Notes: generated from the sequence alone by a model not told the origin. A stretch of DNA of 64,000 nucleotides from an uncultured virus (IMG/VR IMGVR_UViG_3300020048_000028) (IMGVR_UViG_3300020048_000028); one strand, 5' to 3'. Positions 7,325-60,853 are shown, numbered from the stretch's first letter. Numbers and translations are program-made.

Positions 7325-8134
7325 ATGCAAAACGCAATGAACATTGACCGTTACATTAATATGGCGGAAGAAAATTTTTCAGGTATGGATGGATATTCTC
7401 CATTTCCTGAAGGCACTTTAGACCTTTCTATGGAAGGCGAATATGGTGCAGATGGTGATTATTACTATGCTGATGGTAATAACGAAATGGGAACGAGTTA
7501 TTCTTATGCAAACGCTGCACCTATGGCTGCTCCTCGTCCTGTACCTGCAAAACAACCAACTCCGTACCAAGTAAACGTAACTAACACAACTCCAAATCCT
7601 TTGACAGTTGTATTATTTGGTTTAAACACTTATTTATTAACTCCTAACTTCGGAACTTCTGTTGGTGTTATCGTAACTCCTGCTCAAGTAAACGTAAGTT
7701 ATTTAGAGTTATTAAATCAATCTGCAAGTCAACCGTTTGAAACTTCGTTAATTCGTATTCAAACTTCAAGCCCTTCTCAGTTGACTCAAATCTTAACTGT
7801 TACAAGTAAAGATGCAAACGGGCAATTATGTCAAATTCCAATCATCACACAATCGTATTTTTCTGCAAATCAGTTTCAGTCTACGATTTTAGATGTTCCG
7901 TATCCTGTTAAAATTGATGGAAACACTTATGTGTCTTTCTCAATCTTAGGAAACACGACTGCGACATATACATTCTTCCCATCTGAGAAAATCAATCAAT
8001 CTCGTATCTTGGGTAATGGTAGTTCTTTACAACAATACTCTGCTCCTGCTGTACCTGTGGCTGTGCCAATGTTCTCAGCTCGTCCAATCGGTATCCGTAG
8101 ATTGCCTACTATGATTAATCCTGCAAGACGATAA
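7325..8134 (+). CDS. putative major capsid protein (beta-rich, jelly-roll-like; inferred)
   Basis: Near the start of the operon and followed by a strong terminator; alternating hydrophobic beta pattern; KDANG/NQFQS core shared with 3 paralogues; acidic N-arm with xADG repeats. Confidence 0.55.
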   Translation: MQNAMNIDRYINMAEENFSGMDGYSPFPEGTLDLSMEGEYGADGDYYYADGNNEMGTSYSYANAAPMAAPRPVPAKQPTPYQVNVTNTTPNPLTVVLFGLNTYLLTPNFGTSVGVIVTPAQVNVSYLELLNQSASQPFETSLIRIQTSSPSQLTQILTVTSKDANGQLCQIPIITQSYFSANQFQSTILDVPYPVKIDGNTYVSFSILGNTTATYTFFPSEKINQSRILGNGSSLQQYSAPAVPVAVPMFSARPIGIRRLPTMINPARR

Positions 8135-8152
8135 TTTGTCTTTCAATTAGCT

Positions 8153-8190
8153 AAAATGGGCAGGTAATATTTTGCCTGCCCATTTTTTTT
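8153..8190 (+). terminator. intrinsic terminator
   Basis: AAAATGGGCAGGTAA-loop-TTGCCTGCCCATTTT followed by a T run. Confidence 0.85.
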
Positions 8191-8250
8191 AATTAAAAAA
8201 TAATTATTGAACTTGAATAGTCAAACGAAATTGAAATTAATATAAATAAG

Positions 8251-8850
8251 ATGGAAATTAACACTATAAGATATGTATTTGAAAGCAATAAACCCGATTT
8301 AAGAAGGTTAGTTGTAAAATACGGATTACCTCCTGCAAAAAATGAACAGGATTTGTGGAAGAAAACAAATTACCTTGTTGCAAAGTTTAAGAAAGAAATG
8401 CTTAAAGATATTGCCTATATCCATCCCGATAGAGAGCTTATTCTTTGGTCTACTTCTGACAATAATCAAAGCAACGATACTAAAGAAAAAGAAACTAAAG
8501 TTGTTGGTAAAAATTCAAGAGCAGATGGCGAAAGTGAAGAACAGTCTAACTGTAACGGAAACCCTAATTGTAATTGTGGCTCAGTAGTTAAAGAAACAAA
8601 GTCTAACTGTAACGGAAACCCTAACTGTAATTGCGGTTCAGGAGAAGTGAAGTCAAATGTTGTTTCAGCACAACCAACTCAACCACAACAACCACAACCT
8701 CAACAAGCACCTCAAGCACAACCTGCTCAGGAAAAAGTTGCAGACGGAAGTTTTCAAGAAACTTTAAAAAATAATATGCCATTAGTAATTGTTGGTTCTC
8801 TACTTTTAGTAGGTGGATTAATATTCTTTGGAAACCGTAGAATGTCTTAA
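8251..8850 (+). CDS. C-terminally anchored membrane protein with SNCNGNPNCNCGS x2
   Basis: C-terminal TM plus basic tail; Cys repeat; Q/P linker. Confidence 0.7.
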   Translation: MEINTIRYVFESNKPDLRRLVVKYGLPPAKNEQDLWKKTNYLVAKFKKEMLKDIAYIHPDRELILWSTSDNNQSNDTKEKETKVVGKNSRADGESEEQSNCNGNPNCNCGSVVKETKSNCNGNPNCNCGSGEVKSNVVSAQPTQPQQPQPQQAPQAQPAQEKVADGSFQETLKNNMPLVIVGSLLLVGGLIFFGNRRMS

Positions 8851-8853
8851 CAG

Positions 8854-9678
8854 ATGATTTGGGTTCAGCACGATTTATATAAAAATTTTACGCAAAGCGT
8901 AAAATCAGGTGATATGTACATATCCCTTGATATTTTTCGTAGTGAACTTAGTGATTTGCTTACATATAATTCAAAATCTCTTTTTAGTCTTTTTGAAAAA
9001 TTAAATATTAAATATAAAAAAAAAGCATCATATTCTGAACTTTTAGATGTTATATTAAAAGAAATTAAATCAAATGATAAATTCATAAAAGGAATTTCTT
9101 TTTTAATGGTAGAAGGTTCTGATGCAGTTAAAAAAAATAAAAAAGTTCCTTTTATTAAAATACTAAATAGTGTAACTAAAGGTATTAAATTAATAGCTCA
9201 ATATTTTAAAGACTATCCTGCAAAGGAAAGTTTATTTAAAAGGAAAACTCTTGAAATGCTTGGATTGAAATCATCAATTACAGGCAATGATAGTAGGGAA
9301 TTAAAAAAGAAAGACAACACAGTTCTTTGGATTTTAGGAATAGCAGCCGTTGGTGTAGCAGGATATTTTATTTATAAATATTTTGATAAACAAAAAGAGG
9401 CAAGATTAAAAGCTGAAAGTTTAAATAGAATGAATATGATGGCTAACGGTGGAGCAATAACTCCTGAAGTTTTGCCGATTGAAAATTTAAACATACCTCC
9501 TTTAGCTCCTATCCCACCTGCTCCAATAGACCCTGCATATATAGTTCCAACAGATGTACTCTTACCTGAAATAGCTCCGCCAATAGCTCCTCCAATAGCA
9601 ACAGCTAATCCTGTTCCTAATGGAATGTCGAGTGTTCAGATTAATGTTCAACCTGTAAATCAGCCCAATCAAATTTAA
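8854..9678 (+). CDS. single-TM protein with Pro-rich tail
   Basis: TM VLWILGIAAVGVAGYFIYKY; MANGG motif; start codon uncertain by a few nt. Confidence 0.65.
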   Translation: MIWVQHDLYKNFTQSVKSGDMYISLDIFRSELSDLLTYNSKSLFSLFEKLNIKYKKKASYSELLDVILKEIKSNDKFIKGISFLMVEGSDAVKKNKKVPFIKILNSVTKGIKLIAQYFKDYPAKESLFKRKTLEMLGLKSSITGNDSRELKKKDNTVLWILGIAAVGVAGYFIYKYFDKQKEARLKAESLNRMNMMANGGAITPEVLPIENLNIPPLAPIPPAPIDPAYIVPTDVLLPEIAPPIAPPIATANPVPNGMSSVQINVQPVNQPNQI

Positions 9679-9740
9679 AAATAAATAGTTAAAAAAAATA
9701 AATAGTTAAAAAATTAAATAACAATTAAAAAAAACAAAAA

Positions 9741-9956
9741 ATGAATAAGAAAACAATTTTAATCGGTTTAGGAGTTTTAGCCGTTGCAGGTATAGGATAC
9801 TATATGTGGAAGAAAAAACATGAAACTACTTCAAGTGCTGAAGGAGAAGAATACTCATGTGCCGTTAGATGTGGTAATGGTTGTTGGTATGCAAGTAGTT
9901 GTGGACTTGGTCATGGAAAAAGTCTTGGATGTGGTAAAACCAACCCCTCAGCATAA
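9741..9956 (+). CDS. small N-terminal TM, Cys-rich protein
   Basis: MNKKTILIGLGVLAVAGIGYYMWKKK, SSAEG, 5 Cys. Confidence 0.65.
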   Translation: MNKKTILIGLGVLAVAGIGYYMWKKKHETTSSAEGEEYSCAVRCGNGCWYASSCGLGHGKSLGCGKTNPSA

Positions 9957-9979
9957 AATTATAATTTAAAATTAAAAAA

Positions 9980-10675
9980 ATGAATAAGAAAACAATTTTA
10001 ATCGGTTTAGGAGTTTTAGCCGTTGCAGGTATAGGATACTATATGTGGAAGAAAAAANNNNNNNNNNATGAAACTACTTCAGGTGCTTGCGGATGTTCTG
10101 CTGCTGATGGAGAAGATGAAGAAGAATCTTCAAATGCTACGTCATATACTCAATCAGAATTGAATTGTATGACTAAGAAAATGGACGCAGGTTCTACTAT
10201 GGATGAAGCAAAAACAGCTTGTGTAGCAGTAAGAAAAGTAAAGAGAGATTCGGAACAATCTTCAAATTATTCGGGAAAAAAAAATAACTCAATAAACAGT
10301 AGTAATAATAATAACTTAAGTAGTAATCAGGTTAATATTATAACGCAAATTTTATCAAGTGTTAAACAAATAAAACCTTCAGTATCTAATCTGTCAGATA
10401 AGGCGATTAATTTAAAAAATCTTGACGGAATATTATATAATGCCCAAAATGTAACCAATGAAGTTGCTGCTAAATCAATAATTTCATTTGTATCGAAATT
10501 TAATATGCTTAATGGAAATGGTGCTGATATTTTAGTTTCAAGGCTTAAATTAATAGATGATATATCTATAATTTTGTTAAATTATTTGAAAATGTTAAAT
10601 AAAAATTCTGTTAGTTCTGCTAATGAAGAAAATGATATGGAACAATCTTCAAATTATTGGGGAGATGACGTATAG
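9980..10675 (+). CDS. N-terminal TM protein, paralogue of 9741 (spans an N gap)
   Basis: Identical first 26 aa; N run at 10058-10067 leaves the frame unverified. Confidence 0.55.
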   Translation: MNKKTILIGLGVLAVAGIGYYMWKKKXXXXETTSGACGCSAADGEDEEESSNATSYTQSELNCMTKKMDAGSTMDEAKTACVAVRKVKRDSEQSSNYSGKKNNSINSSNNNNLSSNQVNIITQILSSVKQIKPSVSNLSDKAINLKNLDGILYNAQNVTNEVAAKSIISFVSKFNMLNGNGADILVSRLKLIDDISIILLNYLKMLNKNSVSSANEENDMEQSSNYWGDDV

Positions 10676-10726
10676 CGAGCTAAAGCGAGAAATAAAATTA
10701 GAAGTTGGATTTATTAAAAACCAAAT

Positions 10727-10768
10727 AAACTTAAAGGAGGATTTTAAAGTTTTCCTTTAGGTTTTTTT
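10727..10768 (+). terminator. probable intrinsic terminator
   Basis: AAACTTAAAGGA...TCCTTTAGGTTT followed by a T run. Confidence 0.55.
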
Positions 10769-10795
10769 AAGAATAACAATTATAAAATTAAAAAA

Positions 10796-10852
10796 ATGAA
10801 TAAGAAAACAATTTTAATCGGTTTAGGAGTTTTAGCCGTACAATGTAAGTAA
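10796..10852 (+). pseudogene. truncated third copy of the MNKKTILIGLGVLAV gene
   Basis: Identical 5' DNA for 44 nt, then reads VQCK-stop. Confidence 0.65.
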
Positions 10853-10893
10853 AATTTAAGAGTAATTAACAATGAATGTGTTAGTATTTATAT

Positions 10894-11118
10894 ATGGCAA
10901 GACGTAAAAGAAAAGAAAAAAAATCCAATTTTGTAGAAGATACGAGTAGTGAATTTGCTATTTACAAGAGAGGAGCTTTTATCGGAGCTGTGTGTGGAGG
11001 AATAGCAGGTTTTTTACTCGGTAGAAAAATTGTTTTAGGTATAACGTTAGGCGGATTAATAGGTGGATATATCAGTTATGAAGTTAATAAAGATAATAAA
11101 GAATTAAAAACAAATTAA
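10894..11118 (+). CDS. small Gly-zipper 2-TM protein
   Basis: GAFIGAVCGGIAG...LGGLIGG. Confidence 0.65.
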   Translation: MARRKRKEKKSNFVEDTSSEFAIYKRGAFIGAVCGGIAGFLLGRKIVLGITLGGLIGGYISYEVNKDNKELKTN

Positions 11119-11128
11119 ATAAGAAATT

Positions 11129-12433
11129 ATGTCATCAACAACAACAACAACTAAAAGTAAAGCTGAATTAGATTTAGAAAAAAAGAAATCAGATGAGGCT
11201 TATTACGGAGGAACTCTTGGTGGTTCTAAAGGCGATTATGCTAAGGACAATCTTTGGATGTTAAAAGACGATTTGTTTACATTGACTCCAAAAGGTACTA
11301 AGCCTTCAAGGACAATGGAAAAAGTTGATGGCGATAAGCTTTTGTCAGAAGGTGATAAAATTGAAGGGGTAATAGTATATTTTTTGCCAAAAGATAAAAG
11401 CGGAAAATTGGTTGGAACTCCTAAAAGATATTTACATATTTGGAAAGGCGGAAGAACTAATAAGTTTATTGATGCTGAAAAGGTAGTGCCTTATTATCAA
11501 GATATTTTAAATAATAAATCTAAATGGATTTCATCAGGAGGTTCTGATTTAGTTGAGAAAGCTCAACAAAAATTAGGTGTTACTTCATCAGAATCTATTG
11601 CTTCTAATTTTACAGCACTTGATGATATTAATTCTCAAATGAATAATTATGGATTTAATTCTGATATAGATTTATCTAACATGAATGGACTTGATGATAG
11701 TATTTTAAATTCTATTGGTAAGTCTGAGCCTACATCTAATTATGTAGGTAATAGAGGTTATGTAGGTAATAAAAATGCTCCATTTGTAGGTAATAGAAAC
11801 GCTCCGTATAATGGAGGCAGAACGTCTAACATGATAAATGAAAATTTATTAGATGGACTAACTGAAAACACAAGACTTTTAAGTGCTGATGGAGAAGATG
11901 AAGATGAAGAATCTAACATGATAAATGAAAGTTTATTAGATGGACTAACTGAAAACACAACCCTTTTAAGTGCTGATGGAGAAGATGAAGATGAAGAAGT
12001 ATCTAATGCTTTTGGAGATTGGTTTAAAGGCTTAATTGATAAAAATAAGGAAAAACGAGATAAGCGTGCTTTAGCGAAACTATCAGACCCTAACGTTGAT
12101 ATTGTTGAGGCTGCTGATATGAGTAAAGCTTATAAAGAGAGTGGTTCTAAAAAACCTCTTAGAGATTGGATTAATTCTGATAGCGGTAAAAGTATAATAA
12201 GTACTGCTGCTCAATTAGCAAGTCTTTTTCTAAAAGGTCAAGCACAAGCTTCTGCTCCTACAACAAATAATCAAGATAATAAAGATAACCAAGATAATCA
12301 AGATAATAATAATAATAATACGCCATCAGAAACAACTATATTAGGCATGAGTCCTGTAACATTTGGTATAGTCGCTTTTGGGTTAGTTATTGTTAGCTCT
12401 ATTGTAGCTGTTAAACTTTTTAAATCTAAATAA
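11129..12433 (+). CDS. tail-anchored virion-type membrane protein (ILGM family)
   Basis: Internal DLSNMNGLDDS; 29-aa tandem repeat; C-terminal TILGMSP plus TM. Confidence 0.7.
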   Translation: MSSTTTTTKSKAELDLEKKKSDEAYYGGTLGGSKGDYAKDNLWMLKDDLFTLTPKGTKPSRTMEKVDGDKLLSEGDKIEGVIVYFLPKDKSGKLVGTPKRYLHIWKGGRTNKFIDAEKVVPYYQDILNNKSKWISSGGSDLVEKAQQKLGVTSSESIASNFTALDDINSQMNNYGFNSDIDLSNMNGLDDSILNSIGKSEPTSNYVGNRGYVGNKNAPFVGNRNAPYNGGRTSNMINENLLDGLTENTRLLSADGEDEDEESNMINESLLDGLTENTTLLSADGEDEDEEVSNAFGDWFKGLIDKNKEKRDKRALAKLSDPNVDIVEAADMSKAYKESGSKKPLRDWINSDSGKSIISTAAQLASLFLKGQAQASAPTTNNQDNKDNQDNQDNNNNNTPSETTILGMSPVTFGIVAFGLVIVSSIVAVKLFKSK

Positions 12434-13465
12434 ATGAAATTAGACTTGACAAATGCAAATAATTTAGATGTATCTCCATTCGTGGATAGGTATTCTAATA
12501 TTATAAGACTTACTGAAGCGGTTGCTCCTCCTCCGAGAGTAATCACTCAATTAGCTCCAAAAACAACATTATTGGCATCTGAAACTATTGTTCCAAAACC
12601 AAGAGTCGCACCTGCACCTGTAATACCAAGAGTTTCACCTGCACCTGCACCTGCACCTGTACCTACTACTTCTGCTGTTCCACCAAGAGGTACGACACTT
12701 CCAATGGAAACTATTGTGCCTATTACGCCACCGAGAAGTGTTAGTACAATAAATACATTTGCACCAACGGAAACTATTGTTCCTATTACACCAAGAAATG
12801 TTGTTCCGACAGGAACACTTTCGTCAGTTCCTCCAAGAACTATTGTGTTTGCTACTGCTCCTACATTAGAAAATATACCTACTTTTTTCACACCTATTAT
12901 AGTGCCTTCTACTGTGCCTACAACTTCAATTACTTCTCCAATTCCCGTTAATGCTCCTGCTAATGCTCCTATGGGTGGTGGCGGTGGTGGTGATATGGGT
13001 GGCGGAGGAGGTGGCGGTGGTGCTATGGGTGGTGGCGGAGGTGGCGGTGGTGCTGAAGAAGGTGCTGAACAAGGTGCTGAACAAGGTGCTGAACAAGGTG
13101 CTGCCGAACAAGGTGCTGCTGCTGAACAGGGTGCTGCTCAAGGTCAATTACAGCGAGTGGTGGTAATTAAGAAAAAATCATATATTGGTATTTTAGGTTT
13201 ATTACTTGGCGGAGCAGGTGGATATTTTTATGCTAAAAATAATAATAAAAATTTAATTGCATTTTCTTTAATAGGTTCTGCTATTGGTATAGCTGTGGCA
13301 TTGTTAATTGAAAATATGAAAGATAAACAAGTACCTCAAGTAGTACCTCAACCTCAACAAATACCACAAGCTAAACAAGTTCAACAAATACCACAAGCTC
13401 AACAAGTACAAGCTCAACAAGGTCAGGAAGAAGAAATTCAACTTGAGGAAGCTGCTCAACAATAA
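12434..13465 (+). CDS. Pro/Thr-rich mucin-like, Gly-rich, 2-TM protein
   Basis: P/T repeats, poly-G, GAEQ repeats, hairpin TM, Q-rich tail. Confidence 0.7.
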   Translation: MKLDLTNANNLDVSPFVDRYSNIIRLTEAVAPPPRVITQLAPKTTLLASETIVPKPRVAPAPVIPRVSPAPAPAPVPTTSAVPPRGTTLPMETIVPITPPRSVSTINTFAPTETIVPITPRNVVPTGTLSSVPPRTIVFATAPTLENIPTFFTPIIVPSTVPTTSITSPIPVNAPANAPMGGGGGGDMGGGGGGGGAMGGGGGGGGAEEGAEQGAEQGAEQGAAEQGAAAEQGAAQGQLQRVVVIKKKSYIGILGLLLGGAGGYFYAKNNNKNLIAFSLIGSAIGIAVALLIENMKDKQVPQVVPQPQQIPQAKQVQQIPQAQQVQAQQGQEEEIQLEEAAQQ

Positions 13466-13504
13466 ACTAAATAATAAGATATAATAAATTAAATAAATAA
13501 AATT

Positions 13505-14572
13505 ATGAAAACAGAATTAGACGTATCAAACATGGATGGCTTAGATGAAAGCTTATTAGATAATTATTCAAATGCGACTGCCCCAAATCCAACCATAGAT
13601 TTAGGTGATGGGTTTAGTCTTGTAGAATTGGGAGATGAGTTTATAACTAAATACAAAGACGCAGGAATAAAACGTGATTATCATAAAGATAGAGCTGACT
13701 CAATGAATCAGGTTTTAAATGATGACCGCCAAAAATGGGGTACTACGATATTAACATGGAGAGGAGAAACTATGACGAGGTCAAGATTGGCAGATTATTA
13801 TAATGCTGAGAATAGTGCTTACAAGCAATGGGCGAATGACTACTTAGTTTTAAAACAAGAAGCAGATAAAAAAGGTTTATATAAAAAATATATTGATGGC
13901 ACATATCAAAAAGGTTTTTTAATTGATGGTTCGGGTAATGTATCTTCAGGAAGGGAAAACCAATCAATCCCTTATCCAAGAGATAAAGGATTTGTAAAGG
14001 CTGATGGTAAAGGTAATTATTATTATTTTGAAGAATTATCTGAATTTATTAAAGGAGAAATAGCAAGACTTACTAAATTAAAGAATGATGCCGAAAAAGC
14101 TGCTGCTGATTTATTATCTGCTCAAAATAAATCTAATGCTGAAAAAGAACAAGCAAAAATAGCTGCCGAAGAAGCAAATAAAAAGTTTCAAAGAGAAAAA
14201 GCTGACGCTGAGGAAAAAGCAAGACAAGCAGAAAATAAAAGATTAGCAGAAGAAAAAGAAAAAGATAGAAAGTTTCAATTACAAAAGTCTGAAACTGAAT
14301 CAAAGGCAAAACAAGCAGAGCTTAAAATTGCTGAACAAAAAAGAAAGCAAGGTGAAACAGAATCTAAAGCTAAATTAAAAGTAGCAGAAAGAGAAGCTGA
14401 AACAAAAATAAGGTTAGCAGAAGATGAATCTAAAACTAAATTAAGAGTAGCAGAAACAGAAGCAAAATCTAAAGAAGTAGAAGCGAAAGCTAAAACAAAA
14501 AAAGCTATGATTATAGGTGGTTCTGTTTTAGCATTAGTTGCAGGATTTCTTATTTGGAAAAAATTTAGTTAA
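13505..14572 (+). CDS. coiled-coil tail-anchored protein
   Basis: N-terminal LDVSNMDGLDES; long E/K/A helix; C-terminal TM. Confidence 0.7.
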   Translation: MKTELDVSNMDGLDESLLDNYSNATAPNPTIDLGDGFSLVELGDEFITKYKDAGIKRDYHKDRADSMNQVLNDDRQKWGTTILTWRGETMTRSRLADYYNAENSAYKQWANDYLVLKQEADKKGLYKKYIDGTYQKGFLIDGSGNVSSGRENQSIPYPRDKGFVKADGKGNYYYFEELSEFIKGEIARLTKLKNDAEKAAADLLSAQNKSNAEKEQAKIAAEEANKKFQREKADAEEKARQAENKRLAEEKEKDRKFQLQKSETESKAKQAELKIAEQKRKQGETESKAKLKVAEREAETKIRLAEDESKTKLRVAETEAKSKEVEAKAKTKKAMIIGGSVLALVAGFLIWKKFS

Positions 14573-14583
14573 TAAATTAAAAT

Positions 14584-15252
14584 ATGAAAAAACAATTTTA
14601 TAATTATAATTCTTATTGGTATGCTTTAGCAGGCTTAGGTTTAGCTTATGTTTACCTAAAAACTTTAGGCAAGGATAAGAATTTATCTCTTGGCAAATCA
14701 CTTTTAATAGGTGGTGTAGTAGGTGGAGGTATTGGATTAGGTATTGACTTAATGAAAAACAAAAAGGAAGTTGTTGTAGTTAAGAAAAATACAGAACAAA
14801 GTTTAACGCAGTTAGCTAAGTCTATTAGCTCTGATGCGGAGGCTGAATTATCTAATTATTTATTTCTTTTAAATAAAGCAAATCTATCTGATGCCGAAAA
14901 GGAAAAAGGATATAATGTTTTAAACGGATTCTTATTAGCTAAAAAAGATAATAAGTGGGATTCTAAAGCAGATGTTCAAGGAATGAAAAAAATATTATTA
15001 TCTTATGGTGTAACCGAAGATGACTTTAAAGTATTTCAAACAATTTTAGTGAGTAGTCTTGCAACTGCAATTACAAATATATTTTCGAGAAAAGGAAATA
15101 CGGCAGATTTAAAACGAACACAAAATAATACAGCAGATTCAACACAAAATAATACAGCAGATTCAACACAAGATAATACGGTAGATTCAACACAAGGTAA
15201 TGCAGACTATTTAGATGATAATAGTGTAAATGTTATCCACTACAATAGATAG
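14584..15252 (+). CDS. 2-TM membrane protein
   Basis: N-terminal TM hairpin; C-terminal TQxNTADS repeats. Confidence 0.65.
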   Translation: MKKQFYNYNSYWYALAGLGLAYVYLKTLGKDKNLSLGKSLLIGGVVGGGIGLGIDLMKNKKEVVVVKKNTEQSLTQLAKSISSDAEAELSNYLFLLNKANLSDAEKEKGYNVLNGFLLAKKDNKWDSKADVQGMKKILLSYGVTEDDFKVFQTILVSSLATAITNIFSRKGNTADLKRTQNNTADSTQNNTADSTQDNTVDSTQGNADYLDDNSVNVIHYNR

Positions 15253-15326
15253 TAAAAAGACAACAACAAAAAATAAGACAACAAATAAAAATAAATAATA
15301 AACCAACCAACCAAAAAAGACAAATT

Positions 15327-15875
15327 ATGACACAATTAGCAAATGCAAACTTACTTGACGAAAGCGTAGCAAACAGTAGTTCTTTGAAAACAAAAAGATT
15401 AAATAGAACAGCACAAACTGCTATTAATCCAAATCAAAATCCGATTGCGAATAATCCTATGCCTCAAAATAATCAAAATCAAAATGTAATGCCTAAAGCT
15501 TCAGTCTTAAAAAAGGTAGAAGATTTAGAAGAAGAAGATGATAATGATTACAATGATGATGATTATGAAACGGATAATGAAAGACAAGATAATTATCAAA
15601 GATTTCAAAATGAATTTGTTCCAAATAAAACTGAAAACAAAGAAATTTCTAACGATAAGAAAATATTAGGAATGAAACCTGTTTTATTTTGGGCATTATT
15701 AGGGGTTGGTGCTGCCGTAGGTGCTTATTTTGGATATAAATATATTAAAAAAAGAAAATTAGGAAGTTTAGGAAGTAGTTTATCTTCTAATACAGTACCT
15801 AACAATACAGTTGCCGCAGGGGTAACAGGTGGTGCAGTTGCATCAGTACCTACTACTCCTGAAATAAAAATATAA
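15327..15875 (+). CDS. KILGM-family single-TM protein
   Basis: KKILGMKP followed by TM. Confidence 0.65.
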   Translation: MTQLANANLLDESVANSSSLKTKRLNRTAQTAINPNQNPIANNPMPQNNQNQNVMPKASVLKKVEDLEEEDDNDYNDDDYETDNERQDNYQRFQNEFVPNKTENKEISNDKKILGMKPVLFWALLGVGAAVGAYFGYKYIKKRKLGSLGSSLSSNTVPNNTVAAGVTGGAVASVPTTPEIKI

Positions 15876-15887
15876 AAACACAATACA

Positions 15888-16454
15888 ATGAATCAAAACT
15901 TTGAATTATCAAACGTAAATGGATTAGATGATAGCATCTGTAACGCAATAGGTATGGATAATAATCAGTATTCTAATATGATAAATGAAAATTTATTAGA
16001 TGGACTAACTGAAAATACAAGCCTTTTAGGTGCTGATGGTGTGGAAGATAGATACTCTAATTATACTCTAACTTCTGCTGATGTTCAAGCAGGAGCAGCT
16101 TTAGTAGGGACTATTGCTCAAGCTGCTGCGTCAAAGCCCGATGCAAGTGGTTGCAAAAAACCATCTATGCAAGAATCTTTTCTTAATAGAGGCAAGTGGT
16201 CAAAATATAAAGATTGTGTTAAGAATGCTAATGATTTAGCAGAGAAAGCTAATGCGGCAGAAAGAGAAAGAACGGAACAGCAAAGATTAAAGGTTGAACA
16301 AGCTAAATTAGCTTTACAACAATTAAATACAAGTAGAGTCAATAGAGAAGCTGACGGTAAAATTTTAGGTATGCCTAAAGGTTTAGCTATTGGTTTAGGT
16401 GTCGCTATTCTTGGAGCTGCTGTTTTTGTAACGTATAAAATAATTAAAAGATAA
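15888..16454 (+). CDS. KILGMPK tail-anchored protein
   Basis: FELSNVNGLDDS; CKKP...Y..C; KILGMPKGLAIGLG. Confidence 0.7.
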   Translation: MNQNFELSNVNGLDDSICNAIGMDNNQYSNMINENLLDGLTENTSLLGADGVEDRYSNYTLTSADVQAGAALVGTIAQAAASKPDASGCKKPSMQESFLNRGKWSKYKDCVKNANDLAEKANAAERERTEQQRLKVEQAKLALQQLNTSRVNREADGKILGMPKGLAIGLGVAILGAAVFVTYKIIKR

Positions 16455-16459
16455 AAAAT

Positions 16460-16780
16460 ATGAAAATGATGATGGAACAAGAAGAAGGTGCTGCCGTTAG
16501 AAGGGGAGCTTTAGCTGTTAAGCCCGTAACAAAATTAATGGTATTGCCTGATTCTTTAAAAGAGCAAGCAAAAAAATTAGTAGATACAACAAAGGCTAAG
16601 GAAGATACTGATAAAAACGCTAAAGAATTAGCTGATAAAAACGCTAAAGAATTAGCTGATAAATCGGCTGCTTCATCTGATAAAATTTTAGGTATGCCTA
16701 AAATGGTTGCTATTGGATTAGGTGTTGTTTTACTTGCAATAGGTGGCTTTTTTGCATATAAAAAATTTAAAAAAAAATAA
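16460..16780 (+). CDS. KILGMPK tail-anchored protein
   Basis: DKNAKELA repeats; KILGMPKMVAIGLG. Confidence 0.65.
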   Translation: MKMMMEQEEGAAVRRGALAVKPVTKLMVLPDSLKEQAKKLVDTTKAKEDTDKNAKELADKNAKELADKSAASSDKILGMPKMVAIGLGVVLLAIGGFFAYKKFKKK

Positions 16781-16806
16781 TTAAATAATAAATAANNNNN
16801 NNNNNA

Positions 16807-16837
<31 letters not shown>

Positions 16838-16848
16838 AAAATAATAAT

Positions 16849-17313
16849 ATGCAAAATTTCGATTTATCAAATCAAGAAAACTTAGACGATAACTTTTTAG
16901 GTGCAACTTTAAAAGCAAGAAAAGAAATGAAAGGCTTAACAGGCTGTAAAAAACCTATATTTATGATAGGTAAGAAAAAAAAAGCATACAATGAATGTAT
17001 CGCTAATTATAAAACTGAGGTTATAAAAAGAGCAAAAGAAGCAAAACAATTAAATGAACAATTAGCCGCTTCTTCATCAGCAGCAGCAGCAGCAGCAGAA
17101 AAAGCTAAAAAAGAATTAGAGGAAACTAAGGCAGAATTGGCGGCTTCTAAGGGTGGTTCAGGTTCTTCAAAAAAAGGTTCAGCATCATCTGAAACTGAAG
17201 AAGATGGTAAAATTTTAGGTATGTCTAAAGGTTTAGCTATTGGATTGGGAATTGGAGTTGTCGTACTTGCAGTAGGTGGCTTTGTTGTGTATAAGAAATT
17301 TATCAAAAAATAA
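16849..17313 (+). CDS. KILGM tail-anchored protein
   Basis: FDLSNQENLDD; GCKKP...YNEC shared with 15888; KILGMSKG plus TM. Confidence 0.7.
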   Translation: MQNFDLSNQENLDDNFLGATLKARKEMKGLTGCKKPIFMIGKKKKAYNECIANYKTEVIKRAKEAKQLNEQLAASSSAAAAAAEKAKKELEETKAELAASKGGSGSSKKGSASSETEEDGKILGMSKGLAIGLGIGVVVLAVGGFVVYKKFIKK

Positions 17314-17345
17314 TAAATAAAAAATAATAAATAAAAAATAAAATT

Positions 17346-18662
17346 ATGAAAAAAGAATTTGACGTATCAAACGCAGAAGGATTAGACGAAAGTATAACCG
17401 AAGATTATAGTAATTTTAATATTAAAGACCCATTAAAAGGAGCAAGAGATGCTGCTAAAAGAATAAGAGATGAAGCTAAACGAGTTCGTGATAGATTAAA
17501 AGAAGCTGCTAAAAAAGTAAAAGAAGAAGCTGAAAGAGTTGCTAAACAGGCACGAGATGCTGCTAAAAAAGCAGGAGATAAAGCTAAAGAAGTTGGCGGA
17601 AAAATTAAAAGCAAAGCTAAAGAAATTGGCGAAAAAGCCAAAGAAAGAGCTAAGAAAATTGCTACTAAAGCAAGAGATGAAGCTAAACGAGTTCGTAATA
17701 GTATAAAAGAAGTTGAAAAGAAAATAGGTAAAGAATTAAAAAGAGTTGCTACTAAGATAAAAGAGGTTGCCAAAAAAATTGGAGATAAGTTTAGAAACGC
17801 ATTTCGTAAAGTAATTCGAGGTTTGATTTTAAAATCTATTAAAGGAAATGTTCATGGTATGGCTGCAAGAATGTATGCAGCTATTGCAACTGAAGATGAA
17901 CTTAAAGCGAGAAAGTTTAAGCCGAAGTTTGCAGGAAATGCTAAAAAAGCTTATTCAACTATTCTATCGGAATGGAAAAAATTAGGTGGTTCTGAAAGTG
18001 AGCTTAACGATGCGATTGTATCAGGACACTCTAAACGAATGTTGAAAAATCCATTTAATAGAGCAGATGGAAATAATCACGATGAGTTTTATAGCTATAT
18101 TGCTTCTGAAGATTATTATCATGGAGCTGATGGCGATGCTACCGATGAAGAAAAGGAAATTGCAATCGCTGATGCTGAAAAAATGAAAGCTGATGAAGAA
18201 GCTGCTGTTGTTATAAATGAAGATGCAGCTACGGTAGAAGCTCCTGAAGCAGAAGAAAAACAGTCGGGCTTTAAAGCTTTTATTGCTAAAATCCTTTCTT
18301 TATTCAAAAAGCATAAAGCAGATGAAGCTCCTTATGAGGAAGGTACTCCCGAAGCTACTGATTTAGCAACTGATGAAAAGGCAGATGCAGGAAATAGACC
18401 TCCTGAAGGTGGAGATAGTTCAGTTCTTGATGAGTTAGATAAACACGCTGAGTCAGATGCTAATTCTGCTCCTAAGAATGAAGATGATGAAGATGATGAT
18501 GATGACGAGCCTGTAAGCAAAGACGGTAGTGGTAAAAAAACAACTGAAGATGGCGATGGTAAAATTTTAGGTATGCCTAAAGGAGTAGCTATTGGATTAG
18601 GTGTCGCTTTAGTTGCAGTAGTCGGTATAGTAGCTTTTAAATACTTTAAAGGAAAAAAATAA
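17346..18662 (+). CDS. KILGMPK tail-anchored protein with K/A-rich amphipathic repeats
   Basis: FDVSNAEGLDES; basic repeat region; WxKLGG domain shared with 24214; acidic linker; TM. Confidence 0.7.
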   Translation: MKKEFDVSNAEGLDESITEDYSNFNIKDPLKGARDAAKRIRDEAKRVRDRLKEAAKKVKEEAERVAKQARDAAKKAGDKAKEVGGKIKSKAKEIGEKAKERAKKIATKARDEAKRVRNSIKEVEKKIGKELKRVATKIKEVAKKIGDKFRNAFRKVIRGLILKSIKGNVHGMAARMYAAIATEDELKARKFKPKFAGNAKKAYSTILSEWKKLGGSESELNDAIVSGHSKRMLKNPFNRADGNNHDEFYSYIASEDYYHGADGDATDEEKEIAIADAEKMKADEEAAVVINEDAATVEAPEAEEKQSGFKAFIAKILSLFKKHKADEAPYEEGTPEATDLATDEKADAGNRPPEGGDSSVLDELDKHAESDANSAPKNEDDEDDDDDEPVSKDGSGKKTTEDGDGKILGMPKGVAIGLGVALVAVVGIVAFKYFKGKK

Positions 18663-18763
18663 TTAATCAAATTAACAATAATAAGTTAATATATTAATGA
18701 AAATACATGGATTCAGTTCATGTATTTTCCTATTTAAAAACTAAATTTAAAAAAAATAAAAAC

Positions 18764-26989: not shown

Positions 26990-27682
26990 GTGAAAAAAAA
27001 AGATGTCGATAAGTTATACGGCTTAGATGGTGGTTGGGATGAGTTGTTACTCACAGCTTATAATCAAACATCTTCTGACGTTTTTTTTAATTTCTTTGAC
27101 CCTCTTATTGTTCAACAAGTGGAAGTTCCAACAACTCCATCTTCGGGTTTTTACATAAGCAGTAGCAATAGTAGTGATAATTATAATCAAGCTGTAAGGG
27201 ATTTTCTTTATAACCCATGTTGGACAAGAAGGATATATGTTTATTCAAAAACTGAACAAAACTTAAATCAAGTAATTAATCATATCTACAAAGATGCCAA
27301 TGGTATCGAATGTCAGATTCCAAGATTTCCAAGTTTATCGGTTGGTATAAATCAGTTTCAGGGTTGGATTGGTGAACTTGATTTCCCGAATAAGGAAACT
27401 GTATTTGGAATAAATCAATGGTTTAAAAATGTTTTAATAAAAGCTAATAGTGAAATAGGCTTTCTTTTGATTTACAAACAAATTGATAAAAGTAATATGT
27501 TATCGGTATCGAATAATTGTGATTATTGTCCTGCTGAATTAAGAAAATGGAATGAAGATGATTTGTTGCTTAACGATTATTCTTTAGTTTCTGAATTTAA
27601 GCAGAATATGTATGAAGGTGAAACTCAACCTGCCGTCAGACCTTTTGATTTTTCGATATTAAAAGAATGGCAAGGAAAATAG
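26990..27682 (+). CDS. paralogue of the putative capsid protein (minor capsid?)
   Basis: YNQ...NP...NQVI..YKDANG.ECQIP...NQFQ; GTG start. Confidence 0.6.
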   Translation: MKKKDVDKLYGLDGGWDELLLTAYNQTSSDVFFNFFDPLIVQQVEVPTTPSSGFYISSSNSSDNYNQAVRDFLYNPCWTRRIYVYSKTEQNLNQVINHIYKDANGIECQIPRFPSLSVGINQFQGWIGELDFPNKETVFGINQWFKNVLIKANSEIGFLLIYKQIDKSNMLSVSNNCDYCPAELRKWNEDDLLLNDYSLVSEFKQNMYEGETQPAVRPFDFSILKEWQGK

Positions 27683-56368: not shown

Positions 56369-57198
56369 AAAAAATAATACACATTAGTGGATGCCCAAGA
56401 AGTCTTACGACTCTTATTGCAAACACATTAGCAAATAACCCAAGAATAGAAGGAGGAGAAACAAGTGGGCTTTTAGAACTTTTGTACGGAAGTCGTGCAA
56501 ACTACTCTCAGTCGCCTGAATTTAAAGCAGCTTTAACCGAAGATATTATGCACAAAAGCTTTTTAAACTTTTGTAGATTAGGTATGCAGGGGTATGCAGA
56601 CGCAATTTGCGAAGAAAATTCTGCCGATATTTATTTAGATAAAAGTAGAGGATGGTTACATTATGCTCCTTTTTTATGGGAGATAAATCCTGATGCTAAG
56701 ATTATTGTAATGGTAAGAGATATTAGAGCTATATTGTCATCTCTTGAAAAAAAATGGAGAGAAAATCCATCAATTTTAGATAGTAGAGATAATCCTGCAC
56801 AACAAGAATTTATTACAGTAGACCAAAGAGTTAATCAATGGTTAAACCAACCTCCATTAGGAATTGCATTAAAAAGATTATTTAATGCAATCCAAACAGG
56901 AACTATAAAAAATATGCTTGTAGTAAGAGCAGAAGATTTTGCTAAAAAACCAAAAGATGTTATGCAAAAGGTTTATAGATTTATTGACGAGCCTTATTGT
57001 GATTTAGATTATACTAATATTCGTCAAGTTACATCGGAAAATGACAGAATTTCCGATTTTGGAATATATGGCGACCACTCGATTAAAGGAAATATACAAC
57101 CTTTAAAGAGTGATTACAAAGAAATTTTAGGAAACGACATTTGTAATAATGTAAAAGCAAATTTCAAATGGTTTTACGATGCTTTCGATTATTTTTAA
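56365..57198 (+). CDS. sulfotransferase (Sulfotransfer_3-like)
   Basis: ISGCPRSLTT, DKSRGW, KIIVMVRDIRAILSS, RAEDF..P. Confidence 0.8.
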   Translation: MKKIIHISGCPRSLTTLIANTLANNPRIEGGETSGLLELLYGSRANYSQSPEFKAALTEDIMHKSFLNFCRLGMQGYADAICEENSADIYLDKSRGWLHYAPFLWEINPDAKIIVMVRDIRAILSSLEKKWRENPSILDSRDNPAQQEFITVDQRVNQWLNQPPLGIALKRLFNAIQTGTIKNMLVVRAEDFAKKPKDVMQKVYRFIDEPYCDLDYTNIRQVTSENDRISDFGIYGDHSIKGNIQPLKSDYKEILGNDICNNVKANFKWFYDAFDYF

Positions 57199-57246
57199 TA
57201 TCTTTATAAATTAAAAAAGCTACTTACTTAGGAGCTGATAATAACT

Positions 57247-58956
57247 ATGGTTAATATAAGTAAAAAAAATAAAGAGCTTTACAATTTAGGTAAAGGAGAT
57301 AATTTAATACAGTTTGATTTATCAAACCCTACAACTTCGGATGTTACTTATGATTTATTTAATACAACTACGTTGAGTCTTGTGCCAACGGTGGCTAATC
57401 CTGTTGTTGCTCCGAGTGTTGTTAGTGCTAATGTTCCTGTTGGAACAGCTCCCGAAGGAATTGCTTTTAATCCTATTAGTAATACTATGTATGTTTGTAA
57501 TAATGCTACAAATGATATATCTGTTATAGATTGTAATACGAATAGCGTTATTTTTACTATACTAATAGCTTCAGCTCCTCAAGCTATATCTTATTGTTCT
57601 GCAAATAATACAATGTATATTGGTACTAATATTGGTTCAGTTATTGTGATAGATTGTGATGCCAATACTGTTATAGCTACTATATTGAATGGTGGAGTAG
57701 GATTAGCTTATAATCCGATTAATAATAGTATGTACGGTTGTAGTAGTATATTTGGATACATTTCTGTTATTAATTGTAATACAAACACATTTACTACTAT
57801 TGCAGTAGTTTTAAACCCAATTAATATATCTTATAATTCTTTGAGTAATACAATGTATTATACATCAACATTAGCTGTTGTAATTATAGATTGTAATACA
57901 AATACTATTATAGGCTCTCCTATAATAATAGGTTCTTATTTTATAACATATAATTCATTAAACAATTCTATGTATATTAGTAATACTCCATTATTAAGTA
58001 TATCTGTTATAGATTGTAATACTAATACTGTAATATTAACAATACCAACTACGGGTGCTATTGTCGCATTAACTTATCTTCCATTAACAAATAATATATA
58101 TTTCTGTAACTTTACAGTTAATTCAATAGATGTTATAGATTGTAATACTAATACTGTAATTAATACAATACCTATTGGTGGTTTTCCTTTTGATATAGCT
58201 TACAATTTTCTAAGTAATACTGTTTATAATACTAATGTAGGTGGAAGTACAGTTTCCGTAATCTCTCCATTAATTCCTCAAGTATCATATATCGGAGGTT
58301 CATTTGATTATAACGCATTTATTCAAGATGTTATAAACAATCCTGTTGGAGTAGATAGAATGGTTATTGTATCTCAAAACAACGGAAACTTTAATCAGGT
58401 TCTTAATGTGGTTTACAAAGATGCTAATGGTATTGAAACACAAAATCCATTCATACCAAGTTTATCAGTAGGAACAAGTCAGTTTCAAAGTGGTATCGGT
58501 AAAGTTGATTTTCCTAATTCAGAATTAGTATTAGGAGTTAATCAGTATTTGTCAAACTTTTTAGTTAAAGCTAATAGCGAAGTAAAAGTTCTTTTAATAT
58601 ATAAACAATTAGAGAAGTCTAAATTGCTATCTGACAAAAAAGGTATGTTCGGAAGATTAGAGATTAAGTGTAATCCTATTCAAACATTGAAGCCTAATAG
58701 TGATGCTCCATTTGATTATTTTCCTATTATACCTATAATACCTACTAAGCCTTCTATAAGACCTTTTAGTATTAGAGATATAGTTCCCGATGTGAAAATT
58801 AACGTTAATCCCGATATTAGAACTAATGTTAAGCCCGATGTGAAAATTAACGTTAAGCCTGATATTAGAACTGACGTTAAGCCCGATGTGAAAACTAATG
58901 TTAGGACTGACGTTAAGCCCGATGTAAAAGTGGAAATTAAACCTTTTAGAAATTAA
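57247..58956 (+). CDS. capsid-paralogue domain split by a YVTN-like beta-propeller
   Basis: ~42-aa YNxxxNTMY...VIDCNTNTV repeats between the N-terminal strands and the KDANG/QFQS core; KPDVK tail repeats. Confidence 0.7.
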   Translation: MVNISKKNKELYNLGKGDNLIQFDLSNPTTSDVTYDLFNTTTLSLVPTVANPVVAPSVVSANVPVGTAPEGIAFNPISNTMYVCNNATNDISVIDCNTNSVIFTILIASAPQAISYCSANNTMYIGTNIGSVIVIDCDANTVIATILNGGVGLAYNPINNSMYGCSSIFGYISVINCNTNTFTTIAVVLNPINISYNSLSNTMYYTSTLAVVIIDCNTNTIIGSPIIIGSYFITYNSLNNSMYISNTPLLSISVIDCNTNTVILTIPTTGAIVALTYLPLTNNIYFCNFTVNSIDVIDCNTNTVINTIPIGGFPFDIAYNFLSNTVYNTNVGGSTVSVISPLIPQVSYIGGSFDYNAFIQDVINNPVGVDRMVIVSQNNGNFNQVLNVVYKDANGIETQNPFIPSLSVGTSQFQSGIGKVDFPNSELVLGVNQYLSNFLVKANSEVKVLLIYKQLEKSKLLSDKKGMFGRLEIKCNPIQTLKPNSDAPFDYFPIIPIIPTKPSIRPFSIRDIVPDVKINVNPDIRTNVKPDVKINVKPDIRTDVKPDVKTNVRTDVKPDVKVEIKPFRN

Positions 58957-58963
58957 ATAAGTA

Positions 58964-60853
58964 ATGATAAGCAAAAAAAATAAAGAGCTTTACGATTTAG
59001 GTAAAGGAGATAATTTAATACAATTTGATTTATCAAACCCTACGACTTCGGATGTTACTTATGATTTATTTAATACAACTACGTTAAGTATTGTGCCAAC
59101 GGTGGCTAATCCTGTTGTTGCTCCTACTGTGGTTAGTGCTACTATTACTGTTCCTGCTCAACCTTTTAAGTCAGTATTTAATTCTATAAATAATACAATT
59201 TATGTTTTAAATGTTCCTTTAAATAATGTAAATGTTATAGATTGTGTTTCAAATTTAGTAATAGGTTCAGCTATACCTGTTGGTACAAATCCTCAAGATG
59301 GAGCTTTTTGTTCTGCAAATAATACAGTATATATAGCAAACATTAACTCATCAGATATTTCTGTAATAAATTGTTTAACTAATACAGTAATTGCAACTAT
59401 ACCACTTCCTGTTTTTCCTAATGGAATAGCATATAATTCTTTAAACAATAGTATGTATATTACTAATCAATTTACTAATAATATTTATGTAATAGATTGT
59501 AATACTAATGCTATATCAGTAGTCATTCCAATTCCAACAGGTTCTAATAATATAGAATATAATACATTAAATAACTCAATGTATGTTATTGGGCAACCAA
59601 ATAGTTCATTACAAGTTATAGACTGTAATACAAATACTTTTACCACATCAATATTATTAGGTTCTTCGGGAAATAATTTAGCGTATAATTCTTTAAGTAA
59701 TACAATGTATGTTCCGAGATTACCTGCTAATGTGGTTGTAATAGTTGATTGTAATACTAATTCTGTTGTTGGTAATATATCAATTAATTCTCCTTTTGCA
59801 ATAGCTTATGATTCACTTACTAATACAATGTATGTTACGAGGTTAGTTGCAGGTACGGTTCGTTTAATAGATTGCAATATTAATGCAATTATAGCAGTAA
59901 TATCTACGGGTGCATTTCCTACCGATGTAATTTTTAATTATTTGAATAACAGTATTTATGTTACTGATAGTGCTACAAATAATATTTCCGTAATATCTCC
60001 ATTAATCCCTCAAGTATCATATATAGGAGGTTCATTTGATTATAACGCATTTATTCAAGATGTTATAAACAATCCTGTTGGAGTAGATAGAATGGTTATT
60101 GTATCTCAAAACAACGGAAACTTTAATCAGGTTCTTAATGTGGTTTACAAAGATGCTAATGGTATTGAAACACAAAATCCATTCATACCAAGTTTATCAG
60201 TAGGAACAAGTCAGTTTCAAAGTGGTATCGGTAAAGTTGATTTTCCTAATTCAGAATTAGTATTAGGAGTTAATCAGTATTTGTCAAACTTTTTAGTTAA
60301 AGCTAATAGCGAAGTAAAAGTTCTTTTAATTTATAAACAATTAGAGAAGTCTAAATTGCTATCTGATAAAAAAGCAATGTGTGGAAGATTAGAAATTAAG
60401 GGCAATCCACTACAAACATTTAATCCAACAAATCACGATGCTCCATTTGATTATTTTCCTATAATACCTATAAAACCTACTAAGCCTTCTATAAGACCTT
60501 TTAGTATTAGAGATATAGTTCCTACTAAGCCTATTAAAGATTTACCTATTAGACCAACTAATGTTAAACCCGATGTTAAAGTAGATGTTAAGCCTGATAT
60601 TAGAACTAATGTTAAACCCGATGTTAAAGTAGATATAAAGCCTGATGTGAAAACAGATACAACGCCTTCAATAAAGCCACTTACAGTAAGTTATTTTAGT
60701 ATCTATGGTGGTGGAGGTAAAAGAGATATTACTTGCGGTGCTTGTGAATGGTCATGGAATAGAAATGAAAGTGATGCAGATGATGTTTACGTCTGTCATA
60801 AATGTGGATACGATAATCAAAAAATATATGAAAATGAAAAATTCAGAGTATAG
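58964..60853 (+). CDS. second capsid-paralogue/beta-propeller protein with C-terminal Zn ribbon
   Basis: Near-identical flanks to 57247, divergent propeller; CGAC...CHKC. Confidence 0.7.
   Translation: MISKKNKELYDLGKGDNLIQFDLSNPTTSDVTYDLFNTTTLSIVPTVANPVVAPTVVSATITVPAQPFKSVFNSINNTIYVLNVPLNNVNVIDCVSNLVIGSAIPVGTNPQDGAFCSANNTVYIANINSSDISVINCLTNTVIATIPLPVFPNGIAYNSLNNSMYITNQFTNNIYVIDCNTNAISVVIPIPTGSNNIEYNTLNNSMYVIGQPNSSLQVIDCNTNTFTTSILLGSSGNNLAYNSLSNTMYVPRLPANVVVIVDCNTNSVVGNISINSPFAIAYDSLTNTMYVTRLVAGTVRLIDCNINAIIAVISTGAFPTDVIFNYLNNSIYVTDSATNNISVISPLIPQVSYIGGSFDYNAFIQDVINNPVGVDRMVIVSQNNGNFNQVLNVVYKDANGIETQNPFIPSLSVGTSQFQSGIGKVDFPNSELVLGVNQYLSNFLVKANSEVKVLLIYKQLEKSKLLSDKKAMCGRLEIKGNPLQTFNPTNHDAPFDYFPIIPIKPTKPSIRPFSIRDIVPTKPIKDLPIRPTNVKPDVKVDVKPDIRTNVKPDVKVDIKPDVKTDTTPSIKPLTVSYFSIYGGGGKRDITCGACEWSWNRNESDADDVYVCHKCGYDNQKIYENEKFRV

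Follow-up and report, generated by a model that had tools for sequence, protein, structure and literature searches.

Four jelly-roll paralogues in a large uncultured virus: a probable major shell protein and two forms with an inserted beta-propeller

The capsid of P23-77 contains two major protein types with a single beta-barrel core each, and two major capsid protein (MCP) types are also encoded by SSIP-1 and IN93 (PMC6356626). Varidnaviria comprise viruses with one-barrel and with two-barrel MCPs, which have packaging ATPases in common (PMC8328091). The tailless membrane-containing phages that have been described have small genomes, large bacterial virus genomes being assumed to need an HK97 capsid, a portal and a terminase, and our literature searches turned up no paper on a tailless or jelly-roll phage of more than 100 kb. 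Here we analysed a stretch of 64,000 nucleotides (the window) of the uncultured virus IMGVR_UViG_3300020048_000028 from IMG/VR. It had been predicted from the sequence that four of its open reading frames (ORFs) form a family of capsid-like domains, with one candidate MCP, one plain paralogue and two members carrying a beta-propeller. The proteins of these ORFs, which start at 7325, 26990, 57247 and 58964, are called P0001, P0002, P0003 and P0004. We show that the four are related, and we discuss the evidence that P0001 is probably the major shell protein.

Homology, fold and breadth of the family

Based on pairwise BLASTP, P0001 was identical to P0002 at 21 of 60 positions (E 4e-8) and to P0003 at 32 of 138 (E 4e-6). 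P0002 and P0003 were identical at 80 of 220 positions (E 9e-39), with a separate N-terminal segment at E 0.010, and P0003 and P0004 at 368 of 574 (64%). The propeller has diverged between the last two, and their N-terminal strands and C-terminal jelly-roll part are almost identical. Comparison of family profiles with hhalign gave a probability of 98.2% for P0001 against P0003 (E 2.8e-14, 96 columns), 94.6% for P0001 against P0002 (E 6.5e-8) and 99.95% for P0002 against P0003 (E 2.3e-38). The relationship that had been read from an alignment by eye was thus confirmed by both methods, at E 4e-6 or better in BLASTP. The hidden Markov models (HMMs) of the P0001 and P0002 families matched exactly P0001 to P0004 in the window, where no fifth member was found with them at E <= 0.01. 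In P0003 and P0004 the match of the P0002-family HMM is split into residues ~2-52 and ~316-487, indicating that the N-terminal strands, which had also been proposed to match, belong with the rest of the domain and that the propeller has been inserted into it.

It is virtually certain that P0001 to P0004 form one jelly-roll family with a propeller insertion. They are paralogues within a single jelly-roll family that is virus-specific and previously undescribed, and for which no Pfam or PHROG model exists: P0001 and P0002 matched no Pfam or PHROG entry, and P0003 and P0004 gave weak propeller matches only. Searches of 50,697 phage records with tblastn and blastn found no match, and the best score of P0001 in the ESM Atlas (0.84) was below the lead threshold.

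AlphaFold2 models were built for two of the proteins, P0001 (from a 76-sequence alignment) and P0003. The core of P0001 at residues 78-243 is beta-rich, with 11 strands and a predicted local distance difference test score (pLDDT) of about 80-93, and contains an eight-stranded beta-sandwich of two sheets; the same domain is modelled in P0003 from residues 19-37 and 348-454. Residues 19-71 and 249-260 of P0001 are of low confidence. Its N-terminal arm (residues 1-75) is acidic and of low confidence apart from a short conserved helix at 7-18, and its C-terminal tail is basic. The original prediction of a jelly-roll domain of ~150 residues was right about the fold, but the P0001 core is rather longer at ~165 residues. 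With profile similarity among the four and a beta-sandwich in both models, the family itself stands as proposed.

The P0003 model has a pLDDT of 78 overall and above 90 in the propeller. It runs from a hairpin (19-37) through 28 strands at 56-341 (seven blades of four), a strand at 348-351, a helix at 355-364 and sandwich strands up to 454 into a disordered tail. The best match in the PDB with Foldseek was the YVTN propeller 1l0q_A from the S-layer protein of an archaeon (E 4.5e-19); YncE came next (E 3e-15). By model and structure search the insert is a YVTN beta-propeller with seven four-stranded blades, and its 286 residues agree with the ~290 residues of YVTN-like repeats that had been proposed to lie in this loop. 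In both P0003 and P0004 it follows the second strand; the equivalent segment of P0001 (99-114) forms two short helices, and in three plain homologues the loop is ~23 residues longer.

Foldseek searches of the PDB with the P0001 model gave weak E-values (best 3.5e-3) and a list in which almost every entry is a single jelly-roll capsid protein. In BFVD there were 59 matches at E <= 1e-3, in which jelly-roll heads of collagen-repeat proteins were mixed with picorna-like capsid proteins. As jelly rolls predominate in the Foldseek and VIA lists, many viral capsid and penton proteins among them, the fold class of the P0001 model is settled as a jelly-roll beta-sandwich, and the structure names no function. 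In VIA, where Z differences below 1 count as ties, Ena pili, nucleoplasmin-like cores, TNF ligands and carbohydrate-binding modules were within one Z unit of the viral capsid matches.

C-terminal to the jelly roll, P0001 (residues 251-262), P0002 (214-224) and P0003 (500-510) have a common motif, (A/S/V)(V/I/A)RP(F/I)xx(S/R), in which P218 and F219 are nearly invariant across the P0002 family; it may be a shared contact of the C-terminal arm. The longer tail of P0004 ends in a CxxC...CxxC zinc-ribbon-like motif (60600-60853) that is absent from P0003, and its last 150 bases are overlapped in another frame by an ORF of 151 residues (60705-61160), which is kept in two relatives of the window (G001 and G005, see below). 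A conserved N-x-T in the first strand was considered as a glycosylation sequon and dropped because P0003 has N-P-T there.

The family is large. An exhaustive search with the P0001 profile found 1004 clusters (50% identity) at E <= 1e-3, 523 at E <= 1e-10 and 111 at E <= 1e-30. Homologues of P0001 accounted for 351 of 900 candidates at E <= 1e-3, on contigs of up to 238 kb and with 50-93% identity among the 120 listed, and the exact P0001 sequence is on record on a 153-kb contig. Two or three HMM stretches were present in 15 of the 150 best representatives; seven of these consist of two near-full copies in tandem, the type of duplication that gives double jelly-roll capsid proteins. Thirty longer family members contained no Pfam domain and no enzyme fusion.

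Genomic context of P0001 and competing explanations

The shell role of P0001 is suggested mainly by its context, namely synteny with an ATPase, absence of tailed-phage hallmarks, membrane-protein genes and a terminator of its own. From these we consider P0001, with moderate confidence, the probable MCP of a large tailless membrane-containing phage. The proposed capsid role is supported by genomic context for this protein only.

The contig of the window is ~153 kb long. As syntenic relatives we used three IMG/VR contigs of 74-102 kb (G001-G003), a contig of 375,071 bp binned in a Bacteroidota metagenome-assembled genome (MAG; G004:C16) and a contig of 148.5 kb that was assigned to an alphaproteobacterial MAG (G005:C131). 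The core module is shared by smaller relatives of 69-85 kb. The 375-kb contig is virus-like throughout, with a uniform G+C content of 31% and homologues of the lineage from 8 to 372 kb, and encodes RNA ligases, RtcB, a tRNA nucleotidyltransferase, NAMPT and a fragment of a class I aminoacyl-tRNA synthetase. The host of the virus is probably a member of the Bacteroidota.

In G004 and G005 a P-loop protein (278 and 308 residues) with clear Walker A and B motifs is encoded within a conserved block that also comprises genes for P0001-like paralogues and glycan enzymes. It gave sub-threshold Pfam matches to HerA (PF01935) and Zot, and its language-model neighbours are viral clusters (score 0.99), partly labelled Zot or DUF87. 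A search of IMG/VR with this ATPase found 26 loci on contigs of 8-85 kb. At every one of them a full-length P0001-type gene (228-245 residues, HMM E 1e-46 to 1e-57) is located 300-450 bp downstream on the same strand. The 26 loci have 20 distinct ATPase sequences between them, so that some of them are not independent. P0001 itself matched all 26 loci in BLASTP (best 32% over 254 residues, E 8e-24). Among 17 aligned ATPases, 11 matched the HerA central domain PF01935 (E <= 0.01, best 1.8e-5), with scores below or near the curated cut-off, and five matched Zot in Pfam. Against PDB sequences the ATPase profile gave P-loop matches only (ClpB, E 0.017; HerA, E 0.51 with a two-sequence profile) and no tie to a solved viral packaging ATPase.

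Two of the smaller genomes, G009 (84.7 kb) and G013 (68.8 kb), show the order ATPase, jelly-roll gene, 6-7 small membrane ORFs, a gene for an HExxH protein, more membrane ORFs and larger soluble proteins. From P0001 onward the window has this same gene order in expanded form, and an arrangement of ATPase, jelly-roll gene and membrane ORFs is the one expected of a tailless, membrane-lined virus. For G013 (68,799 bp, near-complete) IMG/VR gives inverted terminal repeats, a feature of protein-primed linear genomes; in the scanned parts of it we identified no DNA polymerase.

This context also bears on the idea that the domain is not a virion part and serves instead as a chaperone or scaffold of nucleoplasmin type, or as a carbohydrate-binding module in or on the host cell. 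We consider this very improbable: the genes head, and lie within, a long same-strand block with lysis, fibre-like and membrane-protein genes, the ATPase is adjacent at 26 of 26 loci, and the 30 long members have no fusion to an enzyme or any other Pfam domain.

In the 66 ORFs of the window, Pfam and PHROG searches found neither a terminase nor a portal, and no HK97 capsid, sheath, tube or baseplate wedge. Such hallmarks were likewise not found with Pfam in 114 ORFs of G002 and G003 and in 53 further ORFs of G004 and G005, or with PHROG in the 144 ORFs of the 148.5-kb G005 contig and in 99 ORFs of G004. Six-frame searches of these contigs with PF03237, PF03354, PF04466, PF04860 and PF05065 found no hallmark gene, and five 69-85-kb genomes rated 89-100% complete had no match to PF03237 and PF05065. 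The sole HK97 match was on a different contig of the G005 MAG (G005:C94). The scans of G002-G005 did find genes for replication, tRNA repair, nucleotide metabolism and lysis, and 'polyvalent' proteins of up to 3006 residues. The terminase large subunit, portal and HK97-fold capsid that define Caudoviricetes were thus not detected, very divergent versions being possible. In the window, the 'tape measure' and 'baseplate hub' PHROG matches are a coiled-coil membrane-anchored protein and a lysozyme domain.

Several observations weigh against a shell role. The absence of hallmarks comes from profile searches of possibly incomplete contigs, in a lineage whose proteins mostly match nothing. The HerA/FtsK class of the ATPase is weakly supported, by sub-threshold Pfam scores and language-model cluster labels; its gene is outside the window, and in the nearest large relatives it adjoins P0001-like paralogues, with the orthologue of P0001 ~18 kb (G004) or 16 kb (G005) away. 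The window contains tail-fibre-like features, namely fibre-type repeats and lysozyme domains annotated 'tail' in PHROGs. The top BFVD matches of P0001 are jelly-roll heads of giant-virus collagen-repeat proteins (E 2.2e-5), which are of fibre type and not shells. With HMMs we counted 11 family members in G004 and at least five in G005, and so many paralogues beside glycan-modifying enzymes would also suit surface fibrils or adhesins. Finally, the P0002-type profile found no separate gene at E <= 1e-3 in the five smaller genomes.

Part of this evidence favours an alternative in which all four are surface proteins (decoration or cement proteins, fibre heads or adhesins) on a capsid built of another, undetected protein with a divergent HK97 fold or a double jelly roll. 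In that case the propeller forms would serve as fibres or spikes for receptor binding, and P0001 would be a glycosylated decoration or surface protein of high abundance. Besides the collagen-repeat heads and the up to 11 paralogues per genome, it is favoured by the grouping of family genes with those for glycosyltransferases, methyltransferases and sulfotransferases (in the window, G004, G005 and the locus L058), by the position of P0003 and P0004 amid fibre-like genes, and by the presence of genes with PHROG 'tail fiber' or 'virion structural' matches. A metagenome search with the tandem member P0304 led to a 5.9-kb fragment on which the neighbours seen are glycan-enzyme genes only. However, no other shell candidate appeared in ~480 scanned ORFs or in the six-frame searches, the 69-85-kb genomes have just one clear family member, and adjacency of ATPase and single jelly-roll gene at 26 of 26 loci is expected of a core morphogenetic pair and not of an accessory adhesin. 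We regard the surface-protein explanation as unlikely, yet as the strongest competitor of an MCP role for P0001.

Less likely still is that the family consists of vertex (penton) proteins, with P0001-type pentamers at the fivefold vertices and another, unrecognised protein as the true MCP. A distal domain inserted in a jelly-roll loop is typical of penton bases, and pentameric nucleoplasmin-like cores scored 5.2-5.4 against P0001. However, at differences below one Z unit these scores are ties, and here too the searches gave no other candidate for the shell. A major component is a better fit to the very high conservation, the size of the family and the private terminator, and members with two domains in tandem suit hexon-type rather than penton-type evolution.

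Second subfamily and neighbouring genes

The P0002-type gene invariably follows the HExxH gene in G001-G005. At this position G002, G003 and G004 encode insert-bearing forms of 574, 545 and 756 residues, and G005 a 683-residue protein with two copies of the domain. Plain and propeller forms are both present in G001 and in the window. A domain inserted after the second strand was found in P0003, P0004 and the relatives in G002, G003 and G004; in P0003 and P0004 it is identified as the seven-bladed YVTN propeller. As the five smaller genomes lack a P0002-type gene, the second subfamily is not a universal shell component, and a role as universal second MCP was set aside as unsupported. Of the relatives examined, those with large genomes alone (the window and G001-G005) yielded it, and it looks like an addition.

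The HExxH protein (HEFSH in the window) is 50-75% identical in G001-G005, and a homologue is present within 6 kb at 19 of the 26 ATPase loci. Compared with the distant relative G005, it (50%) and P0001 (52.6%) are the best-conserved proteins of the window. It had no Pfam or PHROG match, and may be a maturation metalloprotease.

In the particle that we propose, which would be tailless and have an internal membrane, as suggested by the predicted membrane-protein genes, the jelly rolls of P0001 would pack side by side as capsomers that cover a lipid vesicle, and the many small anchored proteins whose genes lie directly downstream of P0001 would stud this vesicle. The conserved N-terminal helix and basic C-terminal tail of P0001 could serve as arms towards the membrane or neighbouring subunits. 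P0002 to P0004 would take special positions in the shell, either vertex (penton-like) or as capsomer towers, with the propeller pointing outwards for host binding. Known penton and tower proteins carry their extra domains outwards, and it is by analogy with them, together with the shared shell domain, that a vertex or tower position is suggested for the second subfamily.

The window is AT-rich (27-37% G+C) and densely coding, with nearly all genes on the + strand from 7.3 kb on (Table 1). The hairpin behind P0001 is the sole terminator-like site on the + strand in 6400-29000, and none was found on that strand in 9001-29000. Only 5-9% of sampled words of 6600-9700 were present in four freshwater or lake metatranscriptome runs. 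By hydropathy scan and translation, ~27 ORFs have a membrane-like segment, most of them in 8.2-35.6 kb. Several ORFs of the array downstream of P0001 have an N-terminal LDLSNxxGLDxS and a KILGMP ahead of the anchor. In all, ~20 single-anchor ORFs are found in 8251-18662, 24214-26143 and 30175-35645; many are tail-anchored paralogues that start with xLDLSNxxGLD(D/E)S, have an acidic ADGEDE...SNY and end in ...KILGMPKGxAIGLG...YKKFxKK. These ORFs may form a single expanded family of virion-membrane proteins. The sequence is interrupted by N at two places, in short runs (20 in total) at ~10058-10069, in ORF 9980-10675, and at ~16790-16805.

The conserved N-terminal helix of P0001, YINMAEENFSGMDG (7352-7393), recurs near-exactly as YITMAEENFSGCDG in the middle of a membrane-anchored protein of 413 residues (ORF 24214-25455), and may represent a common docking or processing motif.

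Four further ORFs (18707-21976, 22384-24171, 28115-29671 and 29697-30149) contain 12, 5, 6 and 1 [YF]-x-x-G-G motifs, respectively; they also share a long basic repeat and, C-terminally, the motif ...KCF(L/M)(K/R)(P/R)(F/Y)YK. The GG motif presumably resembles the GG-X cleavage sites of adenain-type proteases, and the four look like polyproteins or packaged internal proteins. Their relatives in G004 have 1646-3006 residues and polyvalent-protein domains (LPD1, LPD11, ART-PolyVal, peptide deformylase).

Glycosyltransferase, sulfotransferase, APS-kinase, methyltransferase and acetyltransferase genes were seen beside jelly-roll members in every genome looked at. Clusters of such genes adjoin family members in G004 (97-110 kb), G005 (114-129 kb) and L058 (1-4795), which suggests that the jelly-roll proteins or the particle surface are glycosylated and sulfated. 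In the cluster next to P0001, the gene at 5821-6525 has divergent orientation and is conserved beside P0001 orthologues. Between this block and P0001 we noted by eye in the raw DNA a putative small gene for a regulator of helix-turn-helix type (6553-6750, - strand) and a putative 31-codon ORF for a hydrophobic peptide (7095-7189, + strand). Other window genes annotated with Pfam and PHROG encode a sulfotransferase at 56.4 kb (56365-57198), SLT and M15 lysis enzymes, a GDSL esterase, a homing endonuclease and fibre-type repeats.

Table 1. Features of the window discussed in the text. Positions are nucleotides of the window unless given as residues (aa).
Feature	Position	Strand	Details and basis
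Glycosyltransferase, sulfotransferase and APS-kinase gene cluster adjoining P0001	1818..6525		Pfam/PHROG
P0001, candidate major shell protein	7325..8134	+	269 aa; AlphaFold2 core, homologues, ATPase-adjacent orthologues
P0001 jelly-roll core	aa 78-243, 7556-8053	+	AlphaFold2 model
Terminator-like hairpin	8153..8186	+	15-bp stem, 6 G-C pairs, T-run; 19 nt past P0001 stop codon
Array of ~12 ORFs, most with a single C-terminal membrane anchor	8251..18662	+	Translations, hydropathy
Conserved HExxH (HEFSH) protein, immediately upstream of P0002	26147..26980	+	277 aa; lineage core gene
P0002, plain member of second subfamily	26990..27682	+	230 aa; uninterrupted jelly-roll core ~aa 20-170
P0003	57247..58956	+	569 aa; AlphaFold2, Foldseek, split HMM match
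P0003 N-terminal hairpin	aa 19-37, 57301-57357	+	AlphaFold2
P0003 inserted 7-bladed YVTN propeller	aa 56-341, 57412-58269	+	AlphaFold2, Foldseek
P0003 remainder of jelly roll	aa 348-454, 58288-58608	+	AlphaFold2
P0003 disordered KPDVK-repeat tail	aa 458-569	+	
P0004, P0003 paralogue	58964..60853	+	629 aa; BLASTP, HMM
P0004 C-terminal jelly-roll part	~aa 353-459, 60020-60340	+	

Comparison with known systems

Our tentative wider proposal is that P0001 could be the MCP in a high-rank lineage, as yet undescribed, of bacterial viruses with an internal membrane, no tail and genomes from ~70 to at least 375 kb, in which repeated duplication of the jelly roll has given propeller-bearing vertex or tower paralogues and tandem two-barrel proteins. 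We rejected the possibility that the lineage is that of the moraphages; they are described as tailed, with TerL, MCP and PolB as markers (PMC12619734). If the proposal is true, these genomes are far beyond those of any described non-tailed phage, and a jelly-roll shell with a HerA/FtsK-type ATPase in genomes of 70-375 kb would break the link between genome size and capsid type. A large, abundant and unannotated family, with its 1004 clusters, would join the capsid repertoire. The proposal would also account for the binning of such contigs as bacterial MAG contigs or their scoring as incomplete 'Uroviricota'. Where paralogues carry a whole propeller in one loop, this points to modular change of host-binding parts. 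Through the tandem two-barrel members, the origin of double jelly-roll capsid proteins becomes open to direct test, and these members would, if the reading holds, be a living example of the transition from single to double.

The C1q/TNF-like heads of collagen-repeat fibres of giant viruses and phages were the top BFVD matches (E 2.2e-5 to 7e-4), and we count it as a likeness that they are surface-exposed, often glycosylated structures. However, P0001 and P0002 have no collagen or coiled-coil stalk, the TM-scores are low (0.15-0.27), and the ATPase synteny of P0001-type genes is unlike that of fibre genes. Penton or vertex jelly rolls of PRD1 and STIV type (PRD1/PR772 P31, STIV A223) scored within the generic range; compared with these P0001 is larger and has long arms, and no double jelly-roll MCP was found as its partner. 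The inserts of P0003 and P0004 are seven-bladed like the YVTN propellers of archaeal 1l0q and E. coli YncE, and many sequence relatives are labelled YVTN propeller proteins by the Joint Genome Institute, some with T9SS sorting domains. Known propellers of this kind stand alone or in tandem with PKD or T9SS domains, whereas here they are spliced into the loop of a viral jelly roll.

By their logic the closest known systems are the tailless internal-membrane viruses with two types of single jelly-roll MCP, i.e. P23-77 of Thermus (VP16/VP17), IN93, the Salisaeta phage SSIP-1 and the haloarchaeal SH1 and HHIV-2 (Helvetiavirae). As in these viruses, the candidate shell proteins, read here from genes and models, are small single beta-barrels. 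The window and G001-G005 each encode two related types, and members of one type may have an additional domain that would face outwards. The known systems have a packaging ATPase of FtsK/HerA kind near the capsid gene, as may the lineage described here, in whose relatives the ATPase matched HerA with weak Pfam scores, and many small membrane proteins, here predicted ones, are encoded in the structural block. However, we found no sequence, profile or specific structural tie to the Helvetiavirae, whose capsid proteins were absent from the structure lists, which is not evidence of absence. Viruses of the Helvetiavirae kind have genomes of tens of kb, compared with 69-375 kb here, and our second subfamily is missing from the smaller relatives. 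In two of the paralogues described here, the domain proposed to face outwards is an entire inserted YVTN propeller.

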